This document shows positions 7,668 to 57,281 of a stretch of 64,000 nt of DNA, piece by piece (within the stretch, counting starts at the first letter, position 1; each line of letters opens with the position of its first letter). Source of the stretch: Candidatus Nomurabacteria bacterium RIFCSPLOWO2_01_FULL_41_18 (GTDB lineage Bacteria; Patescibacteriota; Minisyncoccia; Phycocordibacterales; UBA9973). Under the pieces are notes generated by a model. That model worked only from the letters and a program-made list of their open reading frames with translations, had not been told where the DNA came from and did no database searches. The position numbers and the translations under genes were made by a program. The stretch is taken from the NCBI GenBank assembly GCA_001785865.1, contig MFUZ01000006.1:242315-306314 (forward strand), written 5' to 3'.

Positions 7668-8918
7668 TTACTTGCCCGATATCTTGACGAGCCTGTCGTA
7701 TTTCACTTTTCTTTCAGGTTTAAGCGGAGCACCGGACTTCAAGCCAAAACATCCGAACGCAAAAGCAAGATCCGCGATAAAATCATCATTTGTTTCTTCT
7801 CCCCTGTGGCTCACGATGAGTTCGATGCCCCCCTCCCTCGCCACTTTCATCACCTCCAGAGTTTCAGACAGAGTCCCGATTTGGTTCGGCTTGATGATCA
7901 TGGCATTGATGCTTCTCATTTCAATCGCTTTTTTTAAGCGAAGCACATTGGTAACCGTCAGATCATCTCCAACCACTTTCAAGCGGCTGTGATTCCGACC
8001 AAGTGTGCCAAAACTTTCAAAATCTTCCTCATTGAATGGATCTTCGATAGATAATAAATTAAATTCAGCAATTAAAGAATCGTAAATTTTCATCAATTCT
8101 TCTTTTGAAATATTTTTACCATCAACTTGATAAACACCATTCCCGTAAAAAGAAGATGCAGCCACATCCAGAGCAAAACGCACTTTGCCTTCTAGATTAT
8201 TTCGCCCTACGGCCTCGGTGAGATACATAAGCGGTTTTCGAATATCGCTTACTTCTGGCGCAAAACCTCCCTCATCGCCTAAAACCACTGATTCTTTCCC
8301 TAAATCATTCTTAATTATATCCTCGAGAGATGCCTGCACTTTTATCCCGATATCAATAGCTTCATTTATATCATCCGTCTGGGGTATGACATGATATTCC
8401 TGAAAGGCGAGCCCACTCTTCGTATGTCTGCCTCCTTCGAGCAGATTCATAAAAAGATATGGGGTCTTTCGCGATGGCTTGATCTCGACGAGAGTTCCTA
8501 GATATTGATACACTTCTTGGTCTGTCGCCTTTGCGGCAGCTTTAGCGCAAGCTATCGAGACTCCGATCATAGAATTGCCGCCGAGATTGTCTTTATTGGG
8601 AGTGCCGTCCAACTCGATTATTATTCTATCAATTTCTTTTTGATTTAAAACATTCTGGTTAACCAATCGAGGGGCGATCACGGTATTTACCTTTTCTATG
8701 GCATCTTTTACGCCGAGGCCGTCCTTATCCCTTAATTCATGCGCCTCGTGGCTGCCGGTGCTCGCTCCGGAAGGAACCGAAAACGTGCCGGAAGCAGCCC
8801 CCGCCCCCGCCAGAGGCGGGCAGGCAAACACTGTGACTTCAATGGTAGGGTTTCCGTGCGAATCTTTTATTTCTTTAGCTAAAATTTTAGTAATAGGAAA
8901 ATTTGTTAATTCCGCCAT
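7668..8918 (-). CDS. eno: enolase (phosphopyruvate hydratase)
   Basis: GNPTIEV, SGASTGSHEAHELRD, SHRGEETNDDFIADLAFA motifs; small GC hairpin insert near N-terminus. Confidence 0.9.
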   Translation of the reverse strand: MAELTNFPITKILAKEIKDSHGNPTIEVTVFACPPLAGAGAASGTFSVPSGASTGSHEAHELRDKDGLGVKDAIEKVNTVIAPRLVNQNVLNQKEIDRIIIELDGTPNKDNLGGNSMIGVSIACAKAAAKATDQEVYQYLGTLVEIKPSRKTPYLFMNLLEGGRHTKSGLAFQEYHVIPQTDDINEAIDIGIKVQASLEDIIKNDLGKESVVLGDEGGFAPEVSDIRKPLMYLTEAVGRNNLEGKVRFALDVAASSFYGNGVYQVDGKNISKEELMKIYDSLIAEFNLLSIEDPFNEEDFESFGTLGRNHSRLKVVGDDLTVTNVLRLKKAIEMRSINAMIIKPNQIGTLSETLEVMKVAREGGIELIVSHRGEETNDDFIADLAFAFGCFGLKSGAPLKPERKVKYDRLVKISGK

Positions 8919-8961
8919 ATTACTTTTAATTTTAGCATATTTTTGCTATCATACGAAATAA

Positions 8962-10104
8962 ATGGAAAAATTGATTAGCGGCCGAAACTACATAATGGAG
9001 AGAAAATACAAATGGATCATCAAGCCGATTTTGTTCAAATTTGATCCCGAAAACGTGCATGATAATATGGGCGTCGTCGGTCGTTGGCTCGGCAAACACT
9101 TCCTGACCCGTAAATTAGCGAGTTTATTTTGGAATTATTCAAATCCCGCACTGGAACAGAACATTCTCGGTATAAACTTCAAGAACCCGACAGGACTTTC
9201 GGCTGGTTTCGATAAGAATGCGGAATTGACCGAAATCATCTCTTCCATCAGTTTTGGCTTTATGGAAGTGGGCTCTATTACTGGTGAGGCCTGCGTAGGT
9301 AACCCCAAACCCCGGCTTTGGCGCTTGAAGAAATCGAGATCGCTCGCCGTAAATTACGGACTCATGAACGACGGCGCTGAAGCGATAGCCGAAAGATTGG
9401 GCAAGAAGCTCGAGGTGAAAAAATTCGATATCCCCGTCGGCATCAGTATCGCCAAAACAAATTGCAAAGACACAGTAGATACTGAAAAAGCCATCTTCGA
9501 TTATTTCAAGGCTTATCGAGCATTCATCGACATAGGCGACTATTTCACAATAAATATCAGCTGTCCGAACGCCTTTGGCGGACAGCCCTTCACCGACAGC
9601 ACCAAGCTCTACTTGCTGCTTTCGAAAATCATGTCCGTCCCGAAGACAAAACCTATTTTTATAAAATTATCCCCCGACTTAAAACAAAAAGAAATCAATG
9701 AAATACTAGATATTGCCGCAAAATGGAATGTGGACGGATTTATTTGCACAAATTTGACTAAAAATCGTAATAAAAAACAGAATAAAAACATTATAGATGA
9801 AAGCGTGCCGGAGTTAGGCGGACTGTCTGGGAAAGCAGTTGAAGATCTGTCGCTCGAACTGATCAGATATATTTATAAAAAAACAGGTGGAAAAGCAAGT
9901 AAATTTGTAATTATTGGCTGTGGTGGAGTCTTTAGCGCCGAAGATGCATACAAAAAAATAAAAGCCGGCGCTTCCCTCATCCAACTCATAACGGGAATGA
10001 TTTTCGAAGGCCCGCAACTAATTAGTGAAATAAATTTAGGATTAGTAAAACTCCTAAAAGCTGATGGTTATAAAAATATTTCTGAAGCAATTGGAAAAGA
10101 ATAG
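8962..10104 (+). CDS. pyrD: dihydroorotate dehydrogenase (quinone-type, class 2)
   Basis: N-terminal membrane-associated extension + NPTGLSAGFDKN and C-terminal GCGGVFSAEDAYKKIKAGASLIQL motifs. Confidence 0.75.
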   Translation: MEKLISGRNYIMERKYKWIIKPILFKFDPENVHDNMGVVGRWLGKHFLTRKLASLFWNYSNPALEQNILGINFKNPTGLSAGFDKNAELTEIISSISFGFMEVGSITGEACVGNPKPRLWRLKKSRSLAVNYGLMNDGAEAIAERLGKKLEVKKFDIPVGISIAKTNCKDTVDTEKAIFDYFKAYRAFIDIGDYFTINISCPNAFGGQPFTDSTKLYLLLSKIMSVPKTKPIFIKLSPDLKQKEINEILDIAAKWNVDGFICTNLTKNRNKKQNKNIIDESVPELGGLSGKAVEDLSLELIRYIYKKTGGKASKFVIIGCGGVFSAEDAYKKIKAGASLIQLITGMIFEGPQLISEINLGLVKLLKADGYKNISEAIGKE

Positions 10105-10106
10105 AA

Positions 10107-10138
10107 TTACGTAATGTATTACGTAATACATTACGTAA
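10107..10138. repeat. 32-bp perfect palindrome TTACGTAATGTATTACGTAATACATTACGTAA (copy 1) between convergent stops; probable bidirectional terminator
   Basis: Perfect self-complementarity; contains TACGTAA three times at 12-nt spacing; second near-identical copy at 56849-56882. Confidence 0.7.
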
Positions 10139-10146
10139 CTAAAATC

Positions 10147-11418
10147 TTATTTCTTCTTCAACAAAATCATCAAATCAGAAACGTTGGCCCCTGTTGCGCC
10201 GGTCATGATAATGTCGCCGGACTTTTGAAACACCGGGTAAGAATCGAAACGTTCTAGGTGATCATCGATATCTATACCTTGATTTTTTATTTTTTCAATA
10301 GTTTTTTTATCCGCTATGGCTCCAGCTGCATCGCTGTTGTCCATGCCGTCGGAAGCGAGAGAGACAAAGACCGAATCTTCGCCGATCATTCCTTTTTTGA
10401 TCACTCGGAGCGCCATATGGAGGTTTCTTCCGCCCTTTCCCCCTTTCCTTGCCACTTTTATTTCAGGCTCCCCAGCAGCCAAGACGGTAGTATCTGGGGC
10501 TTCCGCTTTAAAAATTTTCCCCACGGCAGAATCTATCTCATCATACATATCTGTGGATAAAATATTTGCTTTAAGGCCAAGTTCTTCCGACTTTTCGGCC
10601 ATCGCGCTTATGGCGGTCTTGTTTGAAACCAGGACAAAATTGCGTACTTTTTCAAAATATTTATCTTCTTTCGGAGTTTCTATCAGGTCGAATTTTCCCA
10701 AATTATATTTACGAATGATTTCTGCAGCATCCGCTACGGTACTCTCATCCTTGTAGGTGGGGCCTGAAGCGACATCAGCAAAATGATCCCCGGGTATATC
10801 GGAAAAAATAAGTCCGACGACATTGGCCGGATAAGCGACTTTGGCCAATCCCCCGCCTTTCAATATGGAAAGATGCTTCCGGACAGTATTTATTTCCTCG
10901 ATAGTGCCTCCACATTTCAAAAATTCATCATAGAGAGCCATATTTTGCTCGCACTCCTCTTTGGAATAGCAGAGCAAGGCAGAGCCACCGCCCGAGACAA
11001 GTACGATGATGAGATCATCTTCGCTTCCATTTTTCAATATTTCATATATTTTTTCACCGGCCTCTACATTCATCATACTCGGCCTCGGGTGGCTCCCGGC
11101 AAATACGTCGATATAGTCGAGGCTGATCTTGGCAAGTCCAACCACGGCGCCAGTTTCTATCTTCGGACCTAAAATTTTCTCCAACGCGAGAGCGGCACGG
11201 GCAGAAGCCTTGCCAAAACCGACAACTTTGATTTTTTTAAATTTCGACAGATCGAAACTCTCCCCCATTATGGTAAGTAGATCGCCCTCGGGCTTTACAA
11301 ATCGAGAAATTACTTCTTCGGTATCGATCGCCGATAGTCCCGCCTCAATGATAGCAAGAGCCAATTTACGATTTTCCGTTGTGGCGAGCTCGCCCTGATT
11401 TTTGATCCATCTTTTCAT
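10147..11418 (-). CDS. glycerate kinase, MOFRL family (glycerate 2-kinase-like)
   Basis: 423 aa; VVGFGKASARAA, VSGGGSALL, GGKGGRN motifs typical of MOFRL/DUF4147 glycerate kinases. Confidence 0.6.
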   Translation of the reverse strand: MKRWIKNQGELATTENRKLALAIIEAGLSAIDTEEVISRFVKPEGDLLTIMGESFDLSKFKKIKVVGFGKASARAALALEKILGPKIETGAVVGLAKISLDYIDVFAGSHPRPSMMNVEAGEKIYEILKNGSEDDLIIVLVSGGGSALLCYSKEECEQNMALYDEFLKCGGTIEEINTVRKHLSILKGGGLAKVAYPANVVGLIFSDIPGDHFADVASGPTYKDESTVADAAEIIRKYNLGKFDLIETPKEDKYFEKVRNFVLVSNKTAISAMAEKSEELGLKANILSTDMYDEIDSAVGKIFKAEAPDTTVLAAGEPEIKVARKGGKGGRNLHMALRVIKKGMIGEDSVFVSLASDGMDNSDAAGAIADKKTIEKIKNQGIDIDDHLERFDSYPVFQKSGDIIMTGATGANVSDLMILLKKK

Positions 11419-13077: not shown

Positions 13078-13208
13078 AAACTAGAAACTCGTTGCAGGCG
13101 TACTTTTTAGAAAGCCTTGCGCAGGCGGACGCGCCGAGCAGTTCGCTCCGCAAGCTTGCGGAGATAGATTGCTTTATAAAAAGTATGCCAAGAAAGAGTT
13201 TCTAGTTT
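13078..13208. repeat. GC-rich ~130-bp nested inverted-repeat element (terminal 13-bp IR AAACTAGAAACTC/GAGTTTCTAGTTT)
   Basis: Outer perfect 13-bp IR, second IR GTACTTTTTAGAAAGC/GCTTTATAAAAAGTA(T), central 18-bp perfect palindrome CTCCGCAAGCTTGCGGAG; overlaps lepA stop. Confidence 0.5.
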
Positions 13209-15136
13209 TCCCCGCTACGCATCATCTTCAAAAATACGTCTTGGGGAATGTTTACTTTGCCTCTTTCTTTCATTTTCTTTTTGCCTTTCTTTTGTTTCTC
13301 ACGAAGTTTCATTTTGCGAGTTATATCACCTCCATACATATGTGCAGTAACATCTTTTTTCATACCAGAAAGCGTGCGTGATGAGATGATGCGTCCAAAT
13401 GCTTTACCTTGGATTTTCAAAGTAAACATTTGCCTAGGCAACAAGCTCTCTAATTTTACAACAGACTCTTCGGCTTCTATTTCTACCCTTTTCTTTGAGA
13501 CAACTTTAGAAAAAGCTGGTACAGGTTCATCGGCAACCAACACATCAAGTCGGGTGACATCTGCTTCACGATTTTCGGCTATATTGTAAGATATTGATCC
13601 ATAGCCAGATGAAGTGCTTTTTAGTTCATCAAAGAAATTGCGCATCAATTCACGAAGCGGCATTTTTACAGATATAGATGAACGGTTGTCTCCGAAATTC
13701 TCAGTCTCCCCTACTTCTGCTTCATGATCAAACAATATCTGCATAATGTTACCTAGATATTCCACAGGAGTGATTATTTTTGCATTTACCCACGGCTCAA
13801 AAATAGTTTTAATATTACTGTCATCTGGAAAAAAGTACGGCGAATAAATCTTCTGCCTCTTCGGCAGATCGCCGATGAGGCGATTTCCAACATTAGTATT
13901 ATATTCTACTTCATATACGATAGAGGGCGTAGTGATGACAAGATTCAAATTAAATTCTCGCTTCAGTCTTTCAGTAATGATTTCTAAATGAAGCATTCCA
14001 AGAAAACCACAGCGAAAACCTCGCCCCAGAGATCCTGAAGATTCTTCTTCAAAAGAAAAAGACGAATCTGAAAGTTTTAGTTTTCCTAAAGAAAGCTTTA
14101 GTAAGGCAAAATCGTCCGCATCCTCGGGAAAAACACTCGCCCAAACCACCGGCATCGGCTGCATATATCCCGGAAGTGCAGGCAGTGGATTCGCAGATTT
14201 TGTAATCGTATCTCCAACAGAAGCAATACCAGGCTTTTTTATGCCTGTGACAATATAGCCGGTATCTCCAGCTGAGAGACTGTCTCGTGGAGTTTCTTCT
14301 GGTGAAAAAGTCCCGACCTCAAGCGCTGTAAATTTTTCCCCTGAGACAGCAAAAAGCAAGCTGTCACCCCGCCTCACCTTACCATCAAATAACCTCACAA
14401 AAACTATTACCCCTTTATGATTTGAATATTTAAAATCAAACACTAAAGCGCTCAAAACATTTTCACTTTTATTTTCATTTTTATAATTTTCAATTGGCGC
14501 CGGAACACGTTTTATAACTTCCTTTAAAAGATTTTCCACCCCTTCTCCTGTGCGACCTGAAACTAAAAGCACTTCATTTGGATCGCAATTTAAAAGTTTT
14601 ACCACTTCTTCTTTTACTTCCGACACCCTAGCCAAAGGTGAATCAATTTTAGAAAGGACAGGAATTATTACAGAGGCCCCTTCACCTCTCCCATTGCCAG
14701 AGCGGGGTAGGCGAGCCATAGCGAGCGTGGTAAGCGTCTGCGCCTGCACCCCCTGTGTGGAGTCAACCAGTAAAATAGACCCTTCCACGGCCTTCAGAGC
14801 CCTAGAGACTTCATAAGAAAAATCCACGTGTCCGGGAGTGTCAATGAGATTCAGTATGTAAACCTCATCCCCCGCCTTCTCCTGGGGGGAGAAGGAGCCC
14901 CCTCGCCTTCCAGGAGAGGGGTTAGGGGTGAGGTGGGTGGTGTATTCCATGCGAACGGGTTGCATTTTGATTGTAATACCTCGTTCACGCTCAAGCTCCA
15001 TAGAGTCTAGTACTTGATCACGCATTTTTCGCGCTTCTACTGTATGCGTGATCTCGAGCATTCTGTCTGCCAAAGTACTTTTGCCATGGTCTATGTGGGC
15101 GATTATTGAAAAGTTTCTGATGTGTTTTAGGTCCAT
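13202..15136 (-). CDS. lepA: elongation factor 4 (LepA)
   Basis: NFSIIAHIDHGKSTLADR, DTPGHVDF, full five-domain EF4 layout; carries ~20-aa GC-rich in-frame insert (LTPNPSPGRRGGSFSPQEKAG). Confidence 0.9.
   Translation of the reverse strand: MDLKHIRNFSIIAHIDHGKSTLADRMLEITHTVEARKMRDQVLDSMELERERGITIKMQPVRMEYTTHLTPNPSPGRRGGSFSPQEKAGDEVYILNLIDTPGHVDFSYEVSRALKAVEGSILLVDSTQGVQAQTLTTLAMARLPRSGNGRGEGASVIIPVLSKIDSPLARVSEVKEEVVKLLNCDPNEVLLVSGRTGEGVENLLKEVIKRVPAPIENYKNENKSENVLSALVFDFKYSNHKGVIVFVRLFDGKVRRGDSLLFAVSGEKFTALEVGTFSPEETPRDSLSAGDTGYIVTGIKKPGIASVGDTITKSANPLPALPGYMQPMPVVWASVFPEDADDFALLKLSLGKLKLSDSSFSFEEESSGSLGRGFRCGFLGMLHLEIITERLKREFNLNLVITTPSIVYEVEYNTNVGNRLIGDLPKRQKIYSPYFFPDDSNIKTIFEPWVNAKIITPVEYLGNIMQILFDHEAEVGETENFGDNRSSISVKMPLRELMRNFFDELKSTSSGYGSISYNIAENREADVTRLDVLVADEPVPAFSKVVSKKRVEIEAEESVVKLESLLPRQMFTLKIQGKAFGRIISSRTLSGMKKDVTAHMYGGDITRKMKLREKQKKGKKKMKERGKVNIPQDVFLKMMRSGEN
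14868..14940 (-). repeat. in-frame GC-rich palindromic element inside lepA (two hairpin units: CCTTCTCC-TGGGG-GGAGAAGG and CCCCTCGCCTTCCAGGAGAGGGGTTAGGGGTGAGG)
   Basis: Sequence family shared with copies in leuS (28866-28908) and giant protein gene (21118-21160); absent from E. coli LepA at this position. Confidence 0.7.
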
Positions 15137-20983: not shown

Positions 20984-25261
<4,278 letters not shown>

Positions 25262-28017: not shown

Positions 28018-30558
28018 CTAAATCACAATGTTGACAAGCCTGTTTTTCACATAAATCATCTTTTTGACGTCTTTTCCTGCAATATGCCTCACAACAGTTT
28101 CATTCTCCAGAGCTTTTTTCTTTATGCTTTCTTCTGTTTCATCTGCCTGCACAAAAATTTCAGCTCTAACTTTTCCATTTATTTGTATTACAATTTTAAT
28201 TTCTTCATCTTTTATTAAATTCTCATCCCATTTTGGCCAATTGGAGAGATTGATCGAATCCTTCTCTCCTAGAAGGCTCCATAATTCTTCGGTCATATGC
28301 GGTGCGAATGGTGAGAGAACTTGCAGAAATTTTTTATAATCTTCCACTGAAACATTTTCAGCTTTTTCCATCTCTGTCGCCAGAATCATCATGGAAGAGA
28401 TTGCGGTATTGAAATTCATACCCTCTATATCTTCAGAAACTTTTTTTATGGTTTTGTGCAATAACCGAACCAGTGGAGAATTTTTTGACATTCCGGAAGA
28501 ATTATTAAATTTCAAAACTTTCTCCCCTATCCTCCAAACTTTTTCAATAAATCTTCTAGCTCCGATAATGCTTTCCGTAGACCAAGCCACGGACTGATCA
28601 AACGGCCCCATAAACATTTCATAAACTCGAAGTGTATCTGCGCCATAGGTTTTCACAATGTCATCCGGGTTAATTACATTTCCAAGAGACTTGGACATTT
28701 TGACTCCCCCTTCACCCAAGATCATCCCATGCGAAGTACGCTTCATGTATGGCTCGTTTGTAGGCACAAGTTTCAAATCAAAAAGAAATTTATGCCAAAA
28801 ACGAGAATACAAAAGATGCAGAGTCGTGTGTTCATTTCCGCCGTTGTACCAGTCTACTCCACCCGTATTTCCCCCTCTCCTTTCAGGAGAGGGCTGGGGT
28901 GAGGTTAACCAGTATTTTAAATTTTTCTTGCTTGCAAATTCTTTATTATTTTTCGCATCAGCATATCGCAAATAATACCAAGAACTTCCAGCCCAGTTTG
29001 GCATGGTGTCTGTTTCTCTTTTTGCTTTACCAAGGCACTTTGGACATTTCACATTTACCCATTTTGAAATGTTTGCGAGTGGTGATTCGCCACTATCCGT
29101 CGGCTGATAATTCTTAACTTTTGGTAATTCCACCGGCAAATCTTTTTCTGGAACTGGAACTACCCCACAATCTTGGCAATGTATAACTGGTATGGGCTCA
29201 CCCCAGTATCGCTGTCTAGAAAAAATCCAGTCACGAAGTTTGAAGGTCGTCTTTCTAGAAGCGGCACTCTCTGAACTTAACCAATCAATAATTTTAGGTC
29301 GAGCTTCTGCTGAAGTTAAACCATCAAATTGTTTAGAATTAAAAAGCACACCTTCACCTTCGTAACATTCTTCCATGTTTTTTATTTTCTCAAAAAGTGA
29401 TTCGTCTTTGGATTTGATCGAAACCTTGAGAGGAATATTATATTTTTTCGCCATATCAAAATCCCTTTTATCATGAGCATCAGCAAATACAGCGCCAGTC
29501 CCATAATGAACTAACACAAAATCTGATACCCAAACTGGTATTTCTTCTTTGGTTGCTGGATTAATGACCCTGACACCCTTTAATTCAATTCCCGTTTTAT
29601 TACTTTCTGCTGTTCTCTCAACTTCTGGTCTATTTTTAACTTCTTTAATATATTTTTCAACTTCATTCCAGTTTAAAATACTATTTTTGTATTCTTGAAT
29701 AAATGAATGTTCGGGAGCTAAAACAATAAAAGTACAAGAAAAAATTGTATCGACACGAGTAGTAAAAACTTTTATAGCTAGGTCTTGTCTAGCTGAAACT
29801 TTAAACTCTATTTCTGCGCCTTCACTTTTCCCTATCCAATTCCTCTGCCCAAGCTTAATTTGTGGAAGATAATTTACATCATCTAAATCTTTATAAAGCC
29901 TATCGGCGTATTTTGTAATCGCTAGCATCCATTGCTCTTTCTCCCTTTTTTCCACTGCAGTCCCACAACGTTCACAAACGCCAGCTTGCCCTGAGCCTGT
30001 CGAACGGGTTACAACTTCTTCATTCGCAAGTCCAATTTTATCCTTCGGGCACCAGTTTATCGTCATCTTCGCTTTGTAAGCTAAACCTTTTTTCAAAAAT
30101 TGTAAAAATATCCACTGTGTCCATTTGTAATATTTTGGATCAGTGGTATTTATTTCTCGCGACCAATCAAAAGAAATACCGAGTGACTTTATCTGTCTGC
30201 GAAAAGTATCACTATTTTTCTTGGTAACTATCCGTGGATCTTTGCCTGTTTTTATTGCAAAGTTTTCTGTCGGCAATCCAAATGCATCCCAACCTATAGG
30301 ATACAAAACATTAAAACCTTCTAGCCTTCTTTTTCTAGAAATAATATCCATCCCTATGTAAGGCCTTGGATGCCCTACATGAAGACCGTCTCCAGAAGGA
30401 TATGGAAACTCTATCAAGCCATAGAATTTCGGCTTGATCGCAGACTTACTCAGACTGGACGCGGACTGACGCGGAAAATCTTTTGCATAATATATTCCAT
30501 TTTTGTCCCAGATAGTCTGCCATTTACTTTCTATCTTTAAGTGGTTATATTCCTTCAT
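28018..30558 (-). CDS. leuS: leucine--tRNA ligase
   Basis: FPYPSGDGLHVGHPRPY HIGH region, KMSKSLGN, editing domain; carries 16-aa GC-rich insert TSPQPSPERRGGNTGG. Confidence 0.9.
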   Translation of the reverse strand: MKEYNHLKIESKWQTIWDKNGIYYAKDFPRQSASSLSKSAIKPKFYGLIEFPYPSGDGLHVGHPRPYIGMDIISRKRRLEGFNVLYPIGWDAFGLPTENFAIKTGKDPRIVTKKNSDTFRRQIKSLGISFDWSREINTTDPKYYKWTQWIFLQFLKKGLAYKAKMTINWCPKDKIGLANEEVVTRSTGSGQAGVCERCGTAVEKREKEQWMLAITKYADRLYKDLDDVNYLPQIKLGQRNWIGKSEGAEIEFKVSARQDLAIKVFTTRVDTIFSCTFIVLAPEHSFIQEYKNSILNWNEVEKYIKEVKNRPEVERTAESNKTGIELKGVRVINPATKEEIPVWVSDFVLVHYGTGAVFADAHDKRDFDMAKKYNIPLKVSIKSKDESLFEKIKNMEECYEGEGVLFNSKQFDGLTSAEARPKIIDWLSSESAASRKTTFKLRDWIFSRQRYWGEPIPVIHCQDCGVVPVPEKDLPVELPKVKNYQPTDSGESPLANISKWVNVKCPKCLGKAKRETDTMPNWAGSSWYYLRYADAKNNKEFASKKNLKYWLTSPQPSPERRGGNTGGVDWYNGGNEHTTLHLLYSRFWHKFLFDLKLVPTNEPYMKRTSHGMILGEGGVKMSKSLGNVINPDDIVKTYGADTLRVYEMFMGPFDQSVAWSTESIIGARRFIEKVWRIGEKVLKFNNSSGMSKNSPLVRLLHKTIKKVSEDIEGMNFNTAISSMMILATEMEKAENVSVEDYKKFLQVLSPFAPHMTEELWSLLGEKDSINLSNWPKWDENLIKDEEIKIVIQINGKVRAEIFVQADETEESIKKKALENETVVRHIAGKDVKKMIYVKNRLVNIVI
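28866..28908 (-). repeat. in-frame GC-rich palindromic element copy (CCCCCTCTCCTTTCAGGAGAGGGCTGGGGTGAGG) in leuS
   Basis: 9-bp perfect IR CCTCTCCT/AGGAGAGG plus GGGGTGAGG tail; absent from E. coli LeuRS between YWLP and VD(I/W)Y. Confidence 0.7.
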
Positions 30559-33271: not shown

Positions 33272-33312
33272 GAACCACCGATGTTGATAAATTCTGCATA
33301 TGCAGAATTTAT
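33272..33312. repeat. 40-bp perfect palindrome GATGTTGATAAATTCTGCATATGCAGAATTTATCAACATC just downstream of PaaX-like gene
   Basis: Perfect IR; half-site recurs upstream of same gene at 33941-33963. Confidence 0.7.
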
Positions 33313-33322
33313 CAACATCTAG

Positions 33323-33925: not shown

Positions 33926-33940
33926 ATTGTTTATAATTAT

Positions 33941-33963
33941 AGCATATGCAGAATTTATCAACA
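33941..33963. promoter_or_regulatory. upstream copy of 22-bp motif GCATATGCAGAATTTATCAACA (candidate operator) in promoter region of PaaX-like gene
   Basis: Direct match to half of the downstream 40-bp palindrome. Confidence 0.4.
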
Positions 33964-55999: not shown

Positions 56000-56857
56000 A
56001 TGGATAAATTAAGCTTTGTATTTTGGGGAACACCCGATGTAGCCTCTGAGACACTTGAAACCTTAAAGCAAGCTAGATTTTTACCGTCTTTGATTGTTAC
56101 ATCTCCAGATGCAAAAAAAGGGAGAGGCATGCATATGGAAGCATCCCCCGTAGCCATTTTTGCAGAACAAAATAAAATACCTTGTCTTAAACCCGAAAAA
56201 CTTGACGAAGAATTTTGTAATAAACTAAAGCCTAGCTGTCTAAAGCCTAATTGCCTATTTATTGTGGTTGCTTACGGCAAAATAATACCTGAAAATATTA
56301 TAAATATGCCGAAATTGGGCTCTATCAATATACATTATTCACTTCTCCCAAAATATCGTGGAGCTTCTCCTGTAGAATCTGCGATCTTAAACGGAGATAC
56401 GGAAACAGGAGTGACTATACAAAAAATGGTATATAAATTGGATGCAGGAAACATATTAGCGCAAGAAAAGGTGCAAATATCGCCTGATGAAACAGCTCCA
56501 GAATTAAGAAAAAAATTAATTAAAATAGGTGGAGAACTTTTGGTAAAAACTTTAGGAACCCCCTCCTTCCTCCCCCTTATCAAGGGGGAGGTGCCGAAAG
56601 TGGTAGGGATCGAGCAAGATGAATCTCAAGCCACATTTTGCAAAAAAATTAAAAAAGAAGACGGACTGATAGATTTAAATGCCGATGCAGTTACAAACTA
56701 TAATAAATGGAGAGCCTATGTCTTTTGGCCAAGAACTTTCTTTTTTGTAAATGGAAAGAGAATAATAGTTACTGACGCAAAGCTTATAGATGGAAAGTTT
56801 GTGATTAAAAAAATCATTCCAGAAAACGGAAAAGAAATGAATTACAAAGTTACGTAA
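56000..56857 (+). CDS. fmt: methionyl-tRNA formyltransferase
   Basis: N-terminal formyltransferase (NIHYSLLPKYRGASPVESAILNGD) and C-terminal domain; small GC hairpin insert at 56569-56591. Confidence 0.85.
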   Translation: MDKLSFVFWGTPDVASETLETLKQARFLPSLIVTSPDAKKGRGMHMEASPVAIFAEQNKIPCLKPEKLDEEFCNKLKPSCLKPNCLFIVVAYGKIIPENIINMPKLGSINIHYSLLPKYRGASPVESAILNGDTETGVTIQKMVYKLDAGNILAQEKVQISPDETAPELRKKLIKIGGELLVKTLGTPSFLPLIKGEVPKVVGIEQDESQATFCKKIKKEDGLIDLNADAVTNYNKWRAYVFWPRTFFFVNGKRIIVTDAKLIDGKFVIKKIIPENGKEMNYKVT

Positions 56858-56882
56858 TGTATTACGTAATACATTACGTAAC
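56849..56882. repeat. 34-bp perfect palindrome GTTACGTAATGTATTACGTAATACATTACGTAAC (copy 2) overlapping fmt and hpf stop codons
   Basis: Identical 32-bp core to copy at 10107-10138; same convergent-gene context. Confidence 0.7.
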
Positions 56883-57281
56883 TTAATACTTCGAAGTAAA
56901 AGGATTTCGTTTTGAGAGACCCTTCATCATCTTTTTGACACTGCGGGCTCCGCGATACAAGAGCGTCTGACTGCGATCTTTGTTTTTATTTATTTCGTAG
57001 TAGAGAGTGTCTTTAATGGCATCTATCGCCTGATATAAATCTTCCTTATCAGAGCTAGAATAAAATTCTTTGCCGTCTATCTTGATCAGACAATCTGCAT
57101 GGAAAACCTCGCCTGATTTATGATGATTTGTGGACTTGCCTACTTCGAAATTTACCATCACCTTTCCTCCCCCTTCTTTTATCCTGGTAAGAAGCTTTTC
57201 CAAGTTGGTAACCCTCTTCAAAACATAGTCTTTTATAGCTTCAGTTAATTCAATATTTTTACCCTGTAAATTGATTTGCAT
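56883..57281 (-). CDS. hpf: ribosome hibernation promoting factor (HPF/RaiA/YfiA family)
   Basis: MQINLQGKNIELTEAIKDYV... typical RaiA fold signature. Confidence 0.8.
   Translation of the reverse strand: MQINLQGKNIELTEAIKDYVLKRVTNLEKLLTRIKEGGGKVMVNFEVGKSTNHHKSGEVFHADCLIKIDGKEFYSSSDKEDLYQAIDAIKDTLYYEINKNKDRSQTLLYRGARSVKKMMKGLSKRNPFTSKY

Follow-up and report, generated by a model that had tools for sequence, protein, structure and literature searches.

In a 64,000-nucleotide stretch of the genome of Candidatus Nomurabacteria bacterium RIFCSPLOWO2_01_FULL_41_18 (contig MFUZ01000006.1; hereafter the window), the lepA gene carries a 71-nt GC-rich insert made up of two inverted units of a short repeat. 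Block-for-block matching to the table of E. coli copies (TM_ECO) shows that the window units are assignable by sequence to BoxC/PIT/TM, the 'intrastrand triplex motif', which has been known in E. coli since the 1990s (PMC4666352). What is conserved in the lepA insert is the nucleotide sequence and not the peptide, and the BoxC/TM family as a whole is tightly associated with genes of the DUF559 endonuclease family. We consider it probable that the lepA insert is a two-unit copy of BoxC/PIT/TM lacking an open reading frame (ORF) of its own, a miniature within a selfish system formed by the repeat and DUF559. Three aspects appear to be new: copies read through in essential genes of a bacterium of the candidate phyla radiation (CPR), the nucleotide-level constraint on the lepA copy and the DUF559 association. 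The last would matter most of the three, if it holds up.

The lepA gene and its insert

The gene, the insert and its two units are located in the window as follows (the evidence is given in parentheses).

13202-15136, minus strand: lepA (EF4), 644 aa, host of the insert (ORF list; Pfam; EF4 structure match)
14863-14933, minus strand: whole insert, two inverted BoxC/TM units with tails outward, 71 nt (sequence, fold, orthologs)
14898-14933, plus strand: unit 2 of the pair, G-rich strand CCCCCTCGCCTT-CC-AGGAGAGGGG-TTA-GGGGTGAGG (repeat family D4, patterns, E. coli table)
14863-14897, minus strand: unit 1 of the pair, a diverged inverted copy, CTCCTTCTCC-CCCC-AGGAGAAGG-CG-GGGGATGAGG (mismatch-tolerant search)

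Pfam matches to GTP_EFTU, EFG_C and LepA_C were obtained on a protein identical to the window LepA, and the window LepA matches the solved EF4 structure (PDB 5imq) with E = 7e-157. Its best named matches come from Candidatus Nomurabacteria, Paceibacterota and Parcubacteria. LepA including the insert was found identical on 10 contigs from several independent assemblies of groundwater and other metagenomes, among them Rifle (JGI 3300002502) and one 313-kb ENA contig; the six loci shown represent six samples. Because an identical LepA is encoded across independent assemblies and samples, the insert is not an assembly artefact.

On the sense strand the insert, lying in a window of ~40% G+C, runs C-tail, hairpin 1, GCT, hairpin 2, G-tail. 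It encodes ...TTH-LTPNPSPGRRGGSFSPQEKAGDEV-YILNLIDTPGH, the translated element being (H)LTPNPSPGRRGGSFSPQEKAGDE(V), so that LepA reads TTHLTPNPSPGRRGGSFSPQEKAGDEV between the ...PVRMEY and Y(I/V)LNLIDTPGH blocks. A first-pass annotation of the window had pointed to about 70 bp of GC-rich DNA absent from E. coli EF4, and this is borne out by a 21-residue gap between RMEY and Y(I/V)LNLIDTPGH in the alignment to 5imq. The element proposed at 14868-14940 is thus real, with its true span at 14863-14933. A second gap, of 9 residues, was found in the same alignment, and both lie between conserved secondary-structure blocks of the G domain. An AlphaFold2 model of LepA (56-sequence alignment) had a mean predicted local distance difference test score (pLDDT) of 57, too poor for the loop, and the EF4 alignment was used instead. 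The unit pair landed in codons for a beta-hairpin of the EF4 G domain, the one lying between switch I and the DTPGH motif, at its tip. The insert would most simply be translated as a Pro/Ser/Gly/Arg/Glu-rich loop.

The two hairpins noted by the first-pass annotation are both present in the predicted fold, in which the insert forms a three-way junction. Its outer stem, CCTCATCCCC/GGGGTGAGG, results from pairing of the two tails. The DNA fold has an energy of -24.5 kcal/mol (z = -3.6; 0/200 shuffles as good) and the RNA fold one of -45.9 kcal/mol (z = -4.1). An Rfam scan of the window returned four tRNAs and no family matching the element.

Identity of the repeat

A literature search with GGGGTGAGGG led to PMC4666352 and bioRxiv 10.1101/032615, through which the element was named; in the latter the BoxC/TM sequences appear as HPG1/HPG2, a 'G-quadruplex-hairpin-duplex switch'. 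The E. coli consensus is CCCTC(T/G)CCCC-loop-GGGGAGAGGG-(TTA or CCG)-GGGTGAGGGG, the second loop being TTA in type A and CCG in type B, with units of 34-37 nt (PMC4666352). E. coli K-12 has 23 copies, every one intergenic, including five inverted pairs, each of type A plus type B, and the loci are unstable or polymorphic between strains (PMC4666352).

The window units share this design. In each, a CCCTCTCC/GGAGAGGG hairpin of 8-10 bp is followed, after 2-3 nt of spacer, by a tail of 9 nt, GGGGTGAGG, which is a mirror image of the purine arm. The pyrimidine arm, CCCTCTCC(C), pairs with the purine arm, (G)GGAGAGGG, at 8/9, 8/8, 8/9 and 9/9 Watson-Crick positions in the four units. The third, G-rich block, GGGGTGAGG, is mirror-symmetric to the purine arm with 7/8 to 8/9 matches, as many as in both E. 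coli types. TTA, CG, TT and CT form the second loops, and the units are 33-36 nt long (71 nt as a pair). The lepA pair thus combines a TTA-type with a CG-type unit. Its unit 2 has the 'type A' form, with both the TTA second loop and the G mismatch of the E. coli 'A mm' copies; in unit 1 the G-rich strand is the sense strand. The likeness to BoxC/TM therefore extends over the C-rich arm, the loop, the GGAGAGGG arm, the loop of 2-3 nt (TTA or C(C)G), the mirrored GGGGTGAGG block, the overall size (33-37 nt), the G-for-T mismatch variant, the occurrence of inverted pairs and the polymorphism of loci between relatives.

There are also differences. The window units lie in essential ORFs and are read through, whereas the E. 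coli copies are always intergenic; however, intergenic location describes the E. coli copies and is not what defines the sequence family. The tails of the lepA pair point outward, while those of the E. coli pairs point inward according to our own reading of the Table 1 coordinates. Finally, a window unit has 1-2 runs of at least three G, compared with 4 in E. coli. Canonical G-quadruplex potential is lost in the window units because their stems close with A-T pairs (CCT...AGG).

Occupied and empty sites in related genomes

The closest relatives of the window are syntenic with it (loci fetched for comparison are denoted by L and a number). In L008, whose LepA is 86% identical, the insert site holds a short loop, IYDSEK. 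L007 and L010 have the two-unit insert as in the window, and L009 has a single long-hairpin version. With its GAAGGACGGGTGAGG, which resembles GAAGGCGGGGGATGAGG, the L009 insert looks like an internal-deletion derivative. Among 120 LepA homologs (77-100% identity) some have nothing in the loop (the 600-aa form) and others have it filled, with a patchy distribution. The occupants are several architectures of the BoxC/TM repeat or at least four unrelated GC-rich palindromic families. Three of the unrelated families were fetched and proved to be strongly structured DNA:

L131, 10001-11881: 99-nt hairpin encoding NYHPALKGTPPQQGGEDSSPPKLGGVPEGGGG
L132, 10001-12016: insert GPEPIGSETLRVERRSEG
L133, 10001-11887: composite of four hairpins

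These comparisons show that the lepA segment behaves as an insertion and not as an ancestral loop. To judge from the variety of its occupants, the LepA loop is a general landing pad and a likely recurrent hot spot in EF4. Clustering of LepA by similarity gave ~15% backbone divergence throughout, so gains and losses are not resolvable. Since the LepA backbone is too uniform for that purpose, we claim only patchiness for the insert.

The leuS unit is present in the window only: L009 reads YWNQ|VDWYNGG and L010 YFTP|VDWYNGG at this place, while in L008 another insert occupies the place. The units of leuS and of the surface protein are younger, lineage-specific gains. An ACTGGT direct repeat around the leuS copy was considered as a duplication and discarded, being native (two Trp codons) and present also in the empty alleles.

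A second GC-rich segment of lepA is variable as well:

14683-14724, minus strand: second variable GC-rich lepA insert, LPRSGNGRGEGAS (homolog comparison, 9-residue gap against the solved EF4)

It occupies the loop MAR^...IIPV and seems to belong to a different small hairpin family, degenerate here; it folds no better than shuffled sequence. Its ortholog in L007 has a perfect CCCCGCCC/GGGCGGGG stem, and related LPR..GRGEE.. inserts are scattered in homologs. A third extra segment of lepA lies at ~13870-13900 (residues ~414-423) in the NTNVGNRLIGDLPKRQ region and adds ~8 aa relative to EF4 and the homolog consensus.

Nucleotide-level conservation of the lepA pair

Seven sequences make up the orthologous two-unit series (the window, L007, L010 and L254-L257). 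The mean pairwise nucleotide identity of the insert is 0.86 in this series, compared with 0.40 at fourfold sites of lepA; the amino-acid identity is 0.85. The peptide frame differs among the orthologs: a 1-nt difference in a spacer gives NPLLKGEGG instead of NPSPGRRGG, with a later return to the original frame. Five codons of the unit-1 half that are invariant in amino acid (Q, K, A, D and E) never vary in the third base (p ~2e-4). Outside the insert, by comparison, only 25% of the twofold and 5% of the fourfold codons with an invariant amino acid also have an invariant third base, and the valine codon just beyond the element varies. The invariant unit-1 codons for Q, K, A and E all end in G, the exception being GAT, while G+C at third codon positions of lepA outside the insert is 0.35. 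The three-way junction is paired in 98% of cells across the seven orthologs, with compensatory changes in 2 pairs.

We also asked where else the unit-1 variant occurs. Within 377 loci the exact 20-mer GGAGAAGGCGGGGGATGAGG was confined to lepA orthologs, and IMG/VR yielded no match to it. Repeated re-insertion or gene conversion as the source of the conservation was rejected because this variant is unique to lepA. The lepA pair is thus shown to be inherited vertically in one subclade of Paceibacteria/Nomurabacteria. Either its DNA or RNA is under constraint, or hairpin-templated repair preserves the sequence.

Other units in the window

The first-pass annotation had described a three-copy family recurring in leuS and in a giant 'fibre' gene, here that of the surface protein. 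The repeat finder indeed joins 14898-14938, 21121-21161 and 28871-28911 in one family (D4), confirming the two copies outside lepA. The window nevertheless holds four units, since hairpin 1 of lepA is itself an inverted, diverged unit: there are two inverted units in lepA, one in the surface protein and one in leuS, all inside intact ORFs.

21122-21156, plus strand: single unit in the surface-protein gene, translated TSPQPSPGEGEG (family D4, pattern)
28872-28904, plus strand: single unit in leuS with a perfect 9-bp stem, translated TSPQPSPERRGG (family D4, pattern)
28856-28865, plus strand: degenerate complementary tail of the leuS copy, ACTCCACCCG (sense strand CGGGTGGAGT; folds)

The surface protein (1425 aa; 20984-25261, minus strand) has the unit in its Pro/Glu-rich C-terminal tail, where only a weak hairpin is predicted. 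The leuS ORF spans 28018-30558 on the minus strand, and its lineage-specific unit adds 14 aa relative to L009 and L010. The RNA fold of this unit has z = -3.6, and the degenerate tail can pair with the CCTCACCCC tail in centroid and RNA folds.

There are three copies of GGGGTGAGG in the window compared with 0.2 expected, a number reached in 0/100 shuffles. The unit density (4 units per 64 kb) is ~10 times that of E. coli K-12. At ~90% coding density, finding 4/4 units within genes is not significant.

Distribution of the repeat in bacteria and viral contigs

We derived a scan pattern from the window copies: CCTCACCCC-N2-3-CCCTCTCC-N3-8-GGNGAGGG. In its exact form it matches the units of leuS and the surface protein; the one in lepA, whose spacer is 4 nt, calls for a relaxed pattern. 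Even the exact pattern occurs at no fewer than 120 loci (at least that many in each case) in each of three collections, namely one-genome-per-species contigs, metagenome contigs and viral contigs. Among the genome matches listed are Pseudomonas, Xanthomonas, Enterobacteriaceae, Acinetobacter, Planctomycetota and Chloroflexota, as well as Bacteroidota, Deinococcus, Bifidobacterium, Akkermansia and others; most bacterial phyla are represented in the scan. The G+C fraction of the matched genomes ranges from 0.32 to 0.75, and similarity stops sharply at the element borders.

The viral collection (IMG/VR, L258-L377) has the pattern in at least 120 contigs, of which some contain 3-4 copies. For E. 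coli, by contrast, a lack of phage association is reported, although IMG/VR includes prophages with host flanks.

Outside the window, BoxC/TM units are depleted from genes and mostly intergenic. Long ORFs contain 9/39 units in genome loci below 60% G+C, compared with 62-69% of random positions, and 12/46 units in metagenome contigs with flanks below 45% G+C, compared with 57% of random positions. The genic share is thus about a quarter (23-39%). In the genic copies either strand may be the sense strand and peptides derive from all three frames; they include TSPQPSP, LTPxPSP or LTPTLS, SPLTPLLKGEG, and GEGWGEG or ERAGVR. Host genes confirmed by Pfam code for HsdR, UDP-galactopyranose mutase (Glf), UvrD, KsgA, gamma-glutamyltranspeptidase, the delta' subunit of DNA polymerase III, an Eco57I-type methylase and PriA.

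The BoxC/TM family is therefore not specialised for ORFs. Of the two regularities proposed for the window by the first-pass annotation, the same orientation relative to the host gene does not hold, as the lepA units are mutually inverted and both orientations occur elsewhere. The other, in-frame insertion, is true of the window units, which all lie in open ORFs, but not of the units elsewhere, which are mostly intergenic and read in all three frames. A bias of orientation or frame was accordingly rejected on the wider sample. In view of the depletion from genes and the mixed frames, the constant frame in the window reflects survivorship of insertions in a small sample and not ORF targeting.

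Association with DUF559 endonucleases

A Pfam scan of host ORFs revealed DUF559 (PF04480, a Vsr-like PD-(D/E)xK domain) directly adjoining the unit in 2/10 cases:

L117, 1774-4404: PriA, 877 aa, with DUF559 (metagenome-assembled genome of Gastranaerophilales)
L195, 2-1240: DUF559 ahead of a CBM_48 (branching-enzyme-like) ORF

Both are whole unit-DUF559-unit modules with an open frame through to the host, which in effect places an endonuclease domain within the host ORF with neither intein nor intron. When six-frame translations of the fetched loci were searched with jackhmmer, DUF559 was identified in 13 of ~360 repeat-selected loci. All 13 DUF559 ORFs (~120 aa) are flanked by units on both sides, 2-150 nt away. 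The flanking units may be inverted with tails inward (L041, L180, L199), inverted with tails outward as in the lepA pair (L117, L158) or in direct orientation (L019, L195, L237, L302). In outer architecture the lepA pair agrees with the L117 and L158 modules, 3 nt taking the place of their ORF.

To approach the association from the other side, we compiled 44 DUF559 genes by searching the viral contigs with the DUF559 profile. A CCCTCTCC...GGAGAGGG hairpin lies within 250 nt of 17/44 genes, and on both sides of 13/44. The hairpin density is 1.87 per kb near the genes and 0.04 per kb further off in the same loci, a 42-fold difference. In addition, 36 of the best 120 DUF559 proteins from a global protein database run on into peptides that derive from the repeat, mostly at the C-terminus. 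The catalytic residues E, D, H and D do not vary among the flanked DUF559 genes. Blastn of the insert against E. coli genomes gave matches (E = 2-8) under genes annotated as 'DUF559 domain-containing protein', which are marginal because the query is short and GC-rich. In E. coli K-12 a distance of 168 nt separates the DUF559 gene ycjD from TM_ECO no. 9, next to fabI. The ycjD/fabI (envM) locus is the place where BoxC was first noted.

The association is strong and apparently unreported: no BoxC-DUF559 link was evident in the literature on DUF559, subscription journals being outside the coverage. Two published observations are of interest here. Predicted inversion targets show a 14-fold enrichment of DUF559 genes (PMC9881135), which is what a position between inverted repeats would lead one to expect. 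The Vsr/DUF559 fold group also includes a homing endonuclease of group I introns, I-Bth0305I (EDxHD; PMC3424549). The repeat-flanked genes share the fold of the Vsr-like and EDxHD homing endonucleases and of E. coli YcjD, keep the E/D/H/D residues, are small and selfish-looking and likewise insert into host genes. They differ in that no intron or intein is involved, the L117 PriA and L195 modules being read through. An action of DUF559 proteins on BoxC DNA is a proposal.

Origin and maintenance of the lepA insert

According to the reading that we consider probable, BoxC/TM and the DUF559 endonuclease would constitute one selfish system. Solo units and unit pairs would be miniature derivatives or partners of the unit-DUF559-unit modules, and a DUF559-type nuclease acting in trans, or else host repair, may drive their movement. 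Given the gene density of a CPR genome, the survivors would be in-frame, stop-free copies in tolerant surface loops only. Several observations speak against this reading. No DUF559 homolog was detected by jackhmmer in six-frame translations of the 64-kb window or of ~200 kb of related CPR loci, so that for this genome the partner is a proposed one. In the sample compiled from DUF559 genes, at least half have no such hairpin nearby. The flanking units are sometimes direct, which is unusual for transposon ends, and the leuS junction shows no target-site duplication. The E. coli copies have no nearby mobility genes (Holder et al. 2015, PMC4666352); in vitro their isolated strand folds into a triplex, of which no stable form arises in vivo (PMC4666352; 10.1101/032615). 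The strong nucleotide conservation in lepA is unlike that of a purely neutral passenger, and translation of the lepA insert is predicted from its open frame. A more far-reaching version can be put forward tentatively, as one that we would sooner doubt than assert. In it, BoxC/TM would be the cis partner (the ends or the landing sites) of a widespread selfish DUF559 module that inserts in frame, with or without its ORF, into essential genes and so becomes translated within EF4, LeuRS and PriA; the lepA copy would have been domesticated and would be under purifying selection at the nucleic-acid level.

We regard as rather unlikely, though deserving attention, an account in which the lepA pair is an exapted nucleic-acid element, kept for a function of its DNA or mRNA structure, with the peptide as a by-product. 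It might act as a translational pause, an mRNA-stability element in lepA or a site of factor binding or processing, and such a role is compatible with a selfish origin. The account draws on the excess of insert identity over fourfold sites, the third bases frozen inside the element next to a variable codon outside it, the frame shifts among orthologs, the nearly complete and compensated pairing of a very stable structure, and a unit-1 variant that, being confined to lepA, gene conversion cannot maintain. Yet many close relatives have no insert, or unrelated palindromes, in the loop, which makes it dispensable, and the E. coli copies show no promoter, terminator or polymerase-blocking activity in vivo (PMC4666352; 10.1101/032615). 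Moreover, the series comprises seven sequences with perhaps one independent compensatory event, in the second hairpin, and hairpin-templated repair could keep the sequence without function. Somewhat more doubtful is the possibility that the units are mere landing sites, a DUF559 homing-type gene entering between or beside existing units while the units themselves spread by slippage or template switching at hairpins or by another enzyme. The units do far outnumber DUF559 genes, both among the repeat-selected loci and in E. coli K-12, where ycjD is the only DUF559 gene examined; the flanks are both inverted and direct, target-site duplications are not seen, and the Vsr-like fold includes a true homing endonuclease. 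This account, however, leaves the arrival of units at new sites such as leuS unexplained, and whole modules in unrelated hosts (PriA and the CBM_48 protein) look like composite movement. It is very improbable that the insert is an ancestral or convergent EF4 loop selected as protein, its similarity to leuS and the surface protein being a compositional coincidence. The C-terminal half (Q-E/G-K-A-G-D-E-V) is indeed conserved as a peptide in the seven orthologs, but the nucleotide pattern is shared by unrelated genes and across phyla, the first half is frame-shifted, third positions are frozen with a preference for G foreign to the rest of lepA, and close relatives have empty sites.

Comparison with other palindromic repeats

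The first-pass annotation had likened the insert to Rickettsia palindromic elements (RPEs). The likeness is real insofar as a small genome has dispersed palindromes in frame within unrelated housekeeping genes, where they are apparently translated, occupy fold-compatible loops and have empty orthologous sites; the frame is open in lepA, leuS and the surface protein alike. Membership in the RPE family fails, however, on size, range and on what is conserved. The description of RPEs in PMC10969869 (after Ogata et al. 2000) gives ~150 bp, ten families restricted to Rickettsia and a conserved peptide. Set against it, the window units measure 33-36 nt, their family spans bacteria and elsewhere lies mostly between genes, and it is the DNA, not a peptide, that is conserved.

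The repetitive extragenic palindromes (REP), their REPIN pairs with RAYT transposases, and miniature inverted-repeat transposable elements, or MITEs, are likewise short structured repeats, often in inverted pairs, that outnumber a small repeat-flanked nuclease gene. MITEs may also occur within genes and add a peptide, as intragenic ERIC does (Delihas 2007, as cited in PMC10969869). The tails of the lepA pair are inverted repeats that pair with each other. Unlike REP/REPIN, BoxC/TM is associated with a Vsr-like PD-(D/E)xK gene (DUF559) and not with an HUH/Y1 transposase; no target-site duplication is seen, and the family is not limited to a genus or species. Least probable of all the explanations considered is that the insert is a true RPE, or a REP/REPIN element mobilised by a RAYT (Y1) transposase. 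In-frame palindromes in housekeeping genes and a Y1_Tnp gene in the related contig L008 could be cited for it, but the sequence fits BoxC/TM instead, no GTAG-type REP head can be read from the units, and tblastn found no Y1 homolog in the window. A Y1 transposase was rejected as mobiliser since the contig that has the gene, L008, is without any unit. That gene (L008 18081-18746, IS200/IS605-type) is probably unrelated to the BoxC/TM family.

With respect to novelty in an AT-rich small genome, the family itself has long been known as BoxC. In-frame copies in CPR bacteria are unreported as far as we searched: no RPE-like or palindromic in-frame elements in CPR/Patescibacteria were found in the literature covered. 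The repeat is nearly invariant in sequence from E. coli to cyanobacteria, and here in CPR and viral contigs, with its function and mode of spreading unexplained; the DUF559 association makes the question of its mobility testable by experiment. The window shows that BoxC units can reside within the essential genes of a minimal genome, where they are most simply read through into protein. This adds a case, independent of the one in Rickettsia and second to it, of the 'selfish DNA in coding sequence' phenomenon, and a source of lineage-specific protein loops. The lepA copy provides a rare orthologous series that separates nucleotide-level from protein-level constraint. For annotation, such inserts inflate protein lengths and give spurious 'hypothetical' peptides.

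Other inserts and repeats in the window and in relatives

Two more in-frame, lineage-specific inserts are present in leuS (29979-30008 and 30440-30475), both absent in L008-L010. They encode TRSTGSGQA, from GC-rich CCCGTTCGACAGGCTCAGGGCAAGCTGGC, and FPRQSASSLSK; the DNA of the former presumably resembles another GC-rich repeat widespread in other bacteria. Some related Paceibacteria have a LeuRS with an inserted NUDIX domain (~150 aa, proteins of 951-1005 aa), whereas the window LeuRS has none:

L008, 1224-4241: LeuRS with NUDIX domain
L131, 1432-4287: LeuRS with NUDIX domain
L133, 1742-4627: LeuRS with NUDIX domain

In the enolase gene (7668-8918, minus strand), a 21-nt GC-rich hairpin insert at 8800-8826, GCCTGCCCGCCTCTGGCGG followed by GGGCGGGGGC, adds 7 residues ahead of the PSGASTG motif and is absent in L007 and L008. 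Compared with the window (8560-8925), L001 (16212-16580), an assembly of this same genome, has a TAG stop in enolase (CGATTGG to CGCTAGG) that splits the gene call; the gene is intact in the window and L003, and the stop may reflect either strain variation or a fault of assembly. Two pairs of palindromic repeats, either of which may be operator- or terminator-like, were also noticed: an AT-rich perfect palindrome of 44-52 nt (TTACGTAATGTATTACGTAATACATTACGTAA) at 10097-10148 and 56839-56892, and a 36-nt palindrome (TGTTGATAAATTCTGCATATGCAGAATTTATCAACA) at 33282-33317 and 33928-33963.

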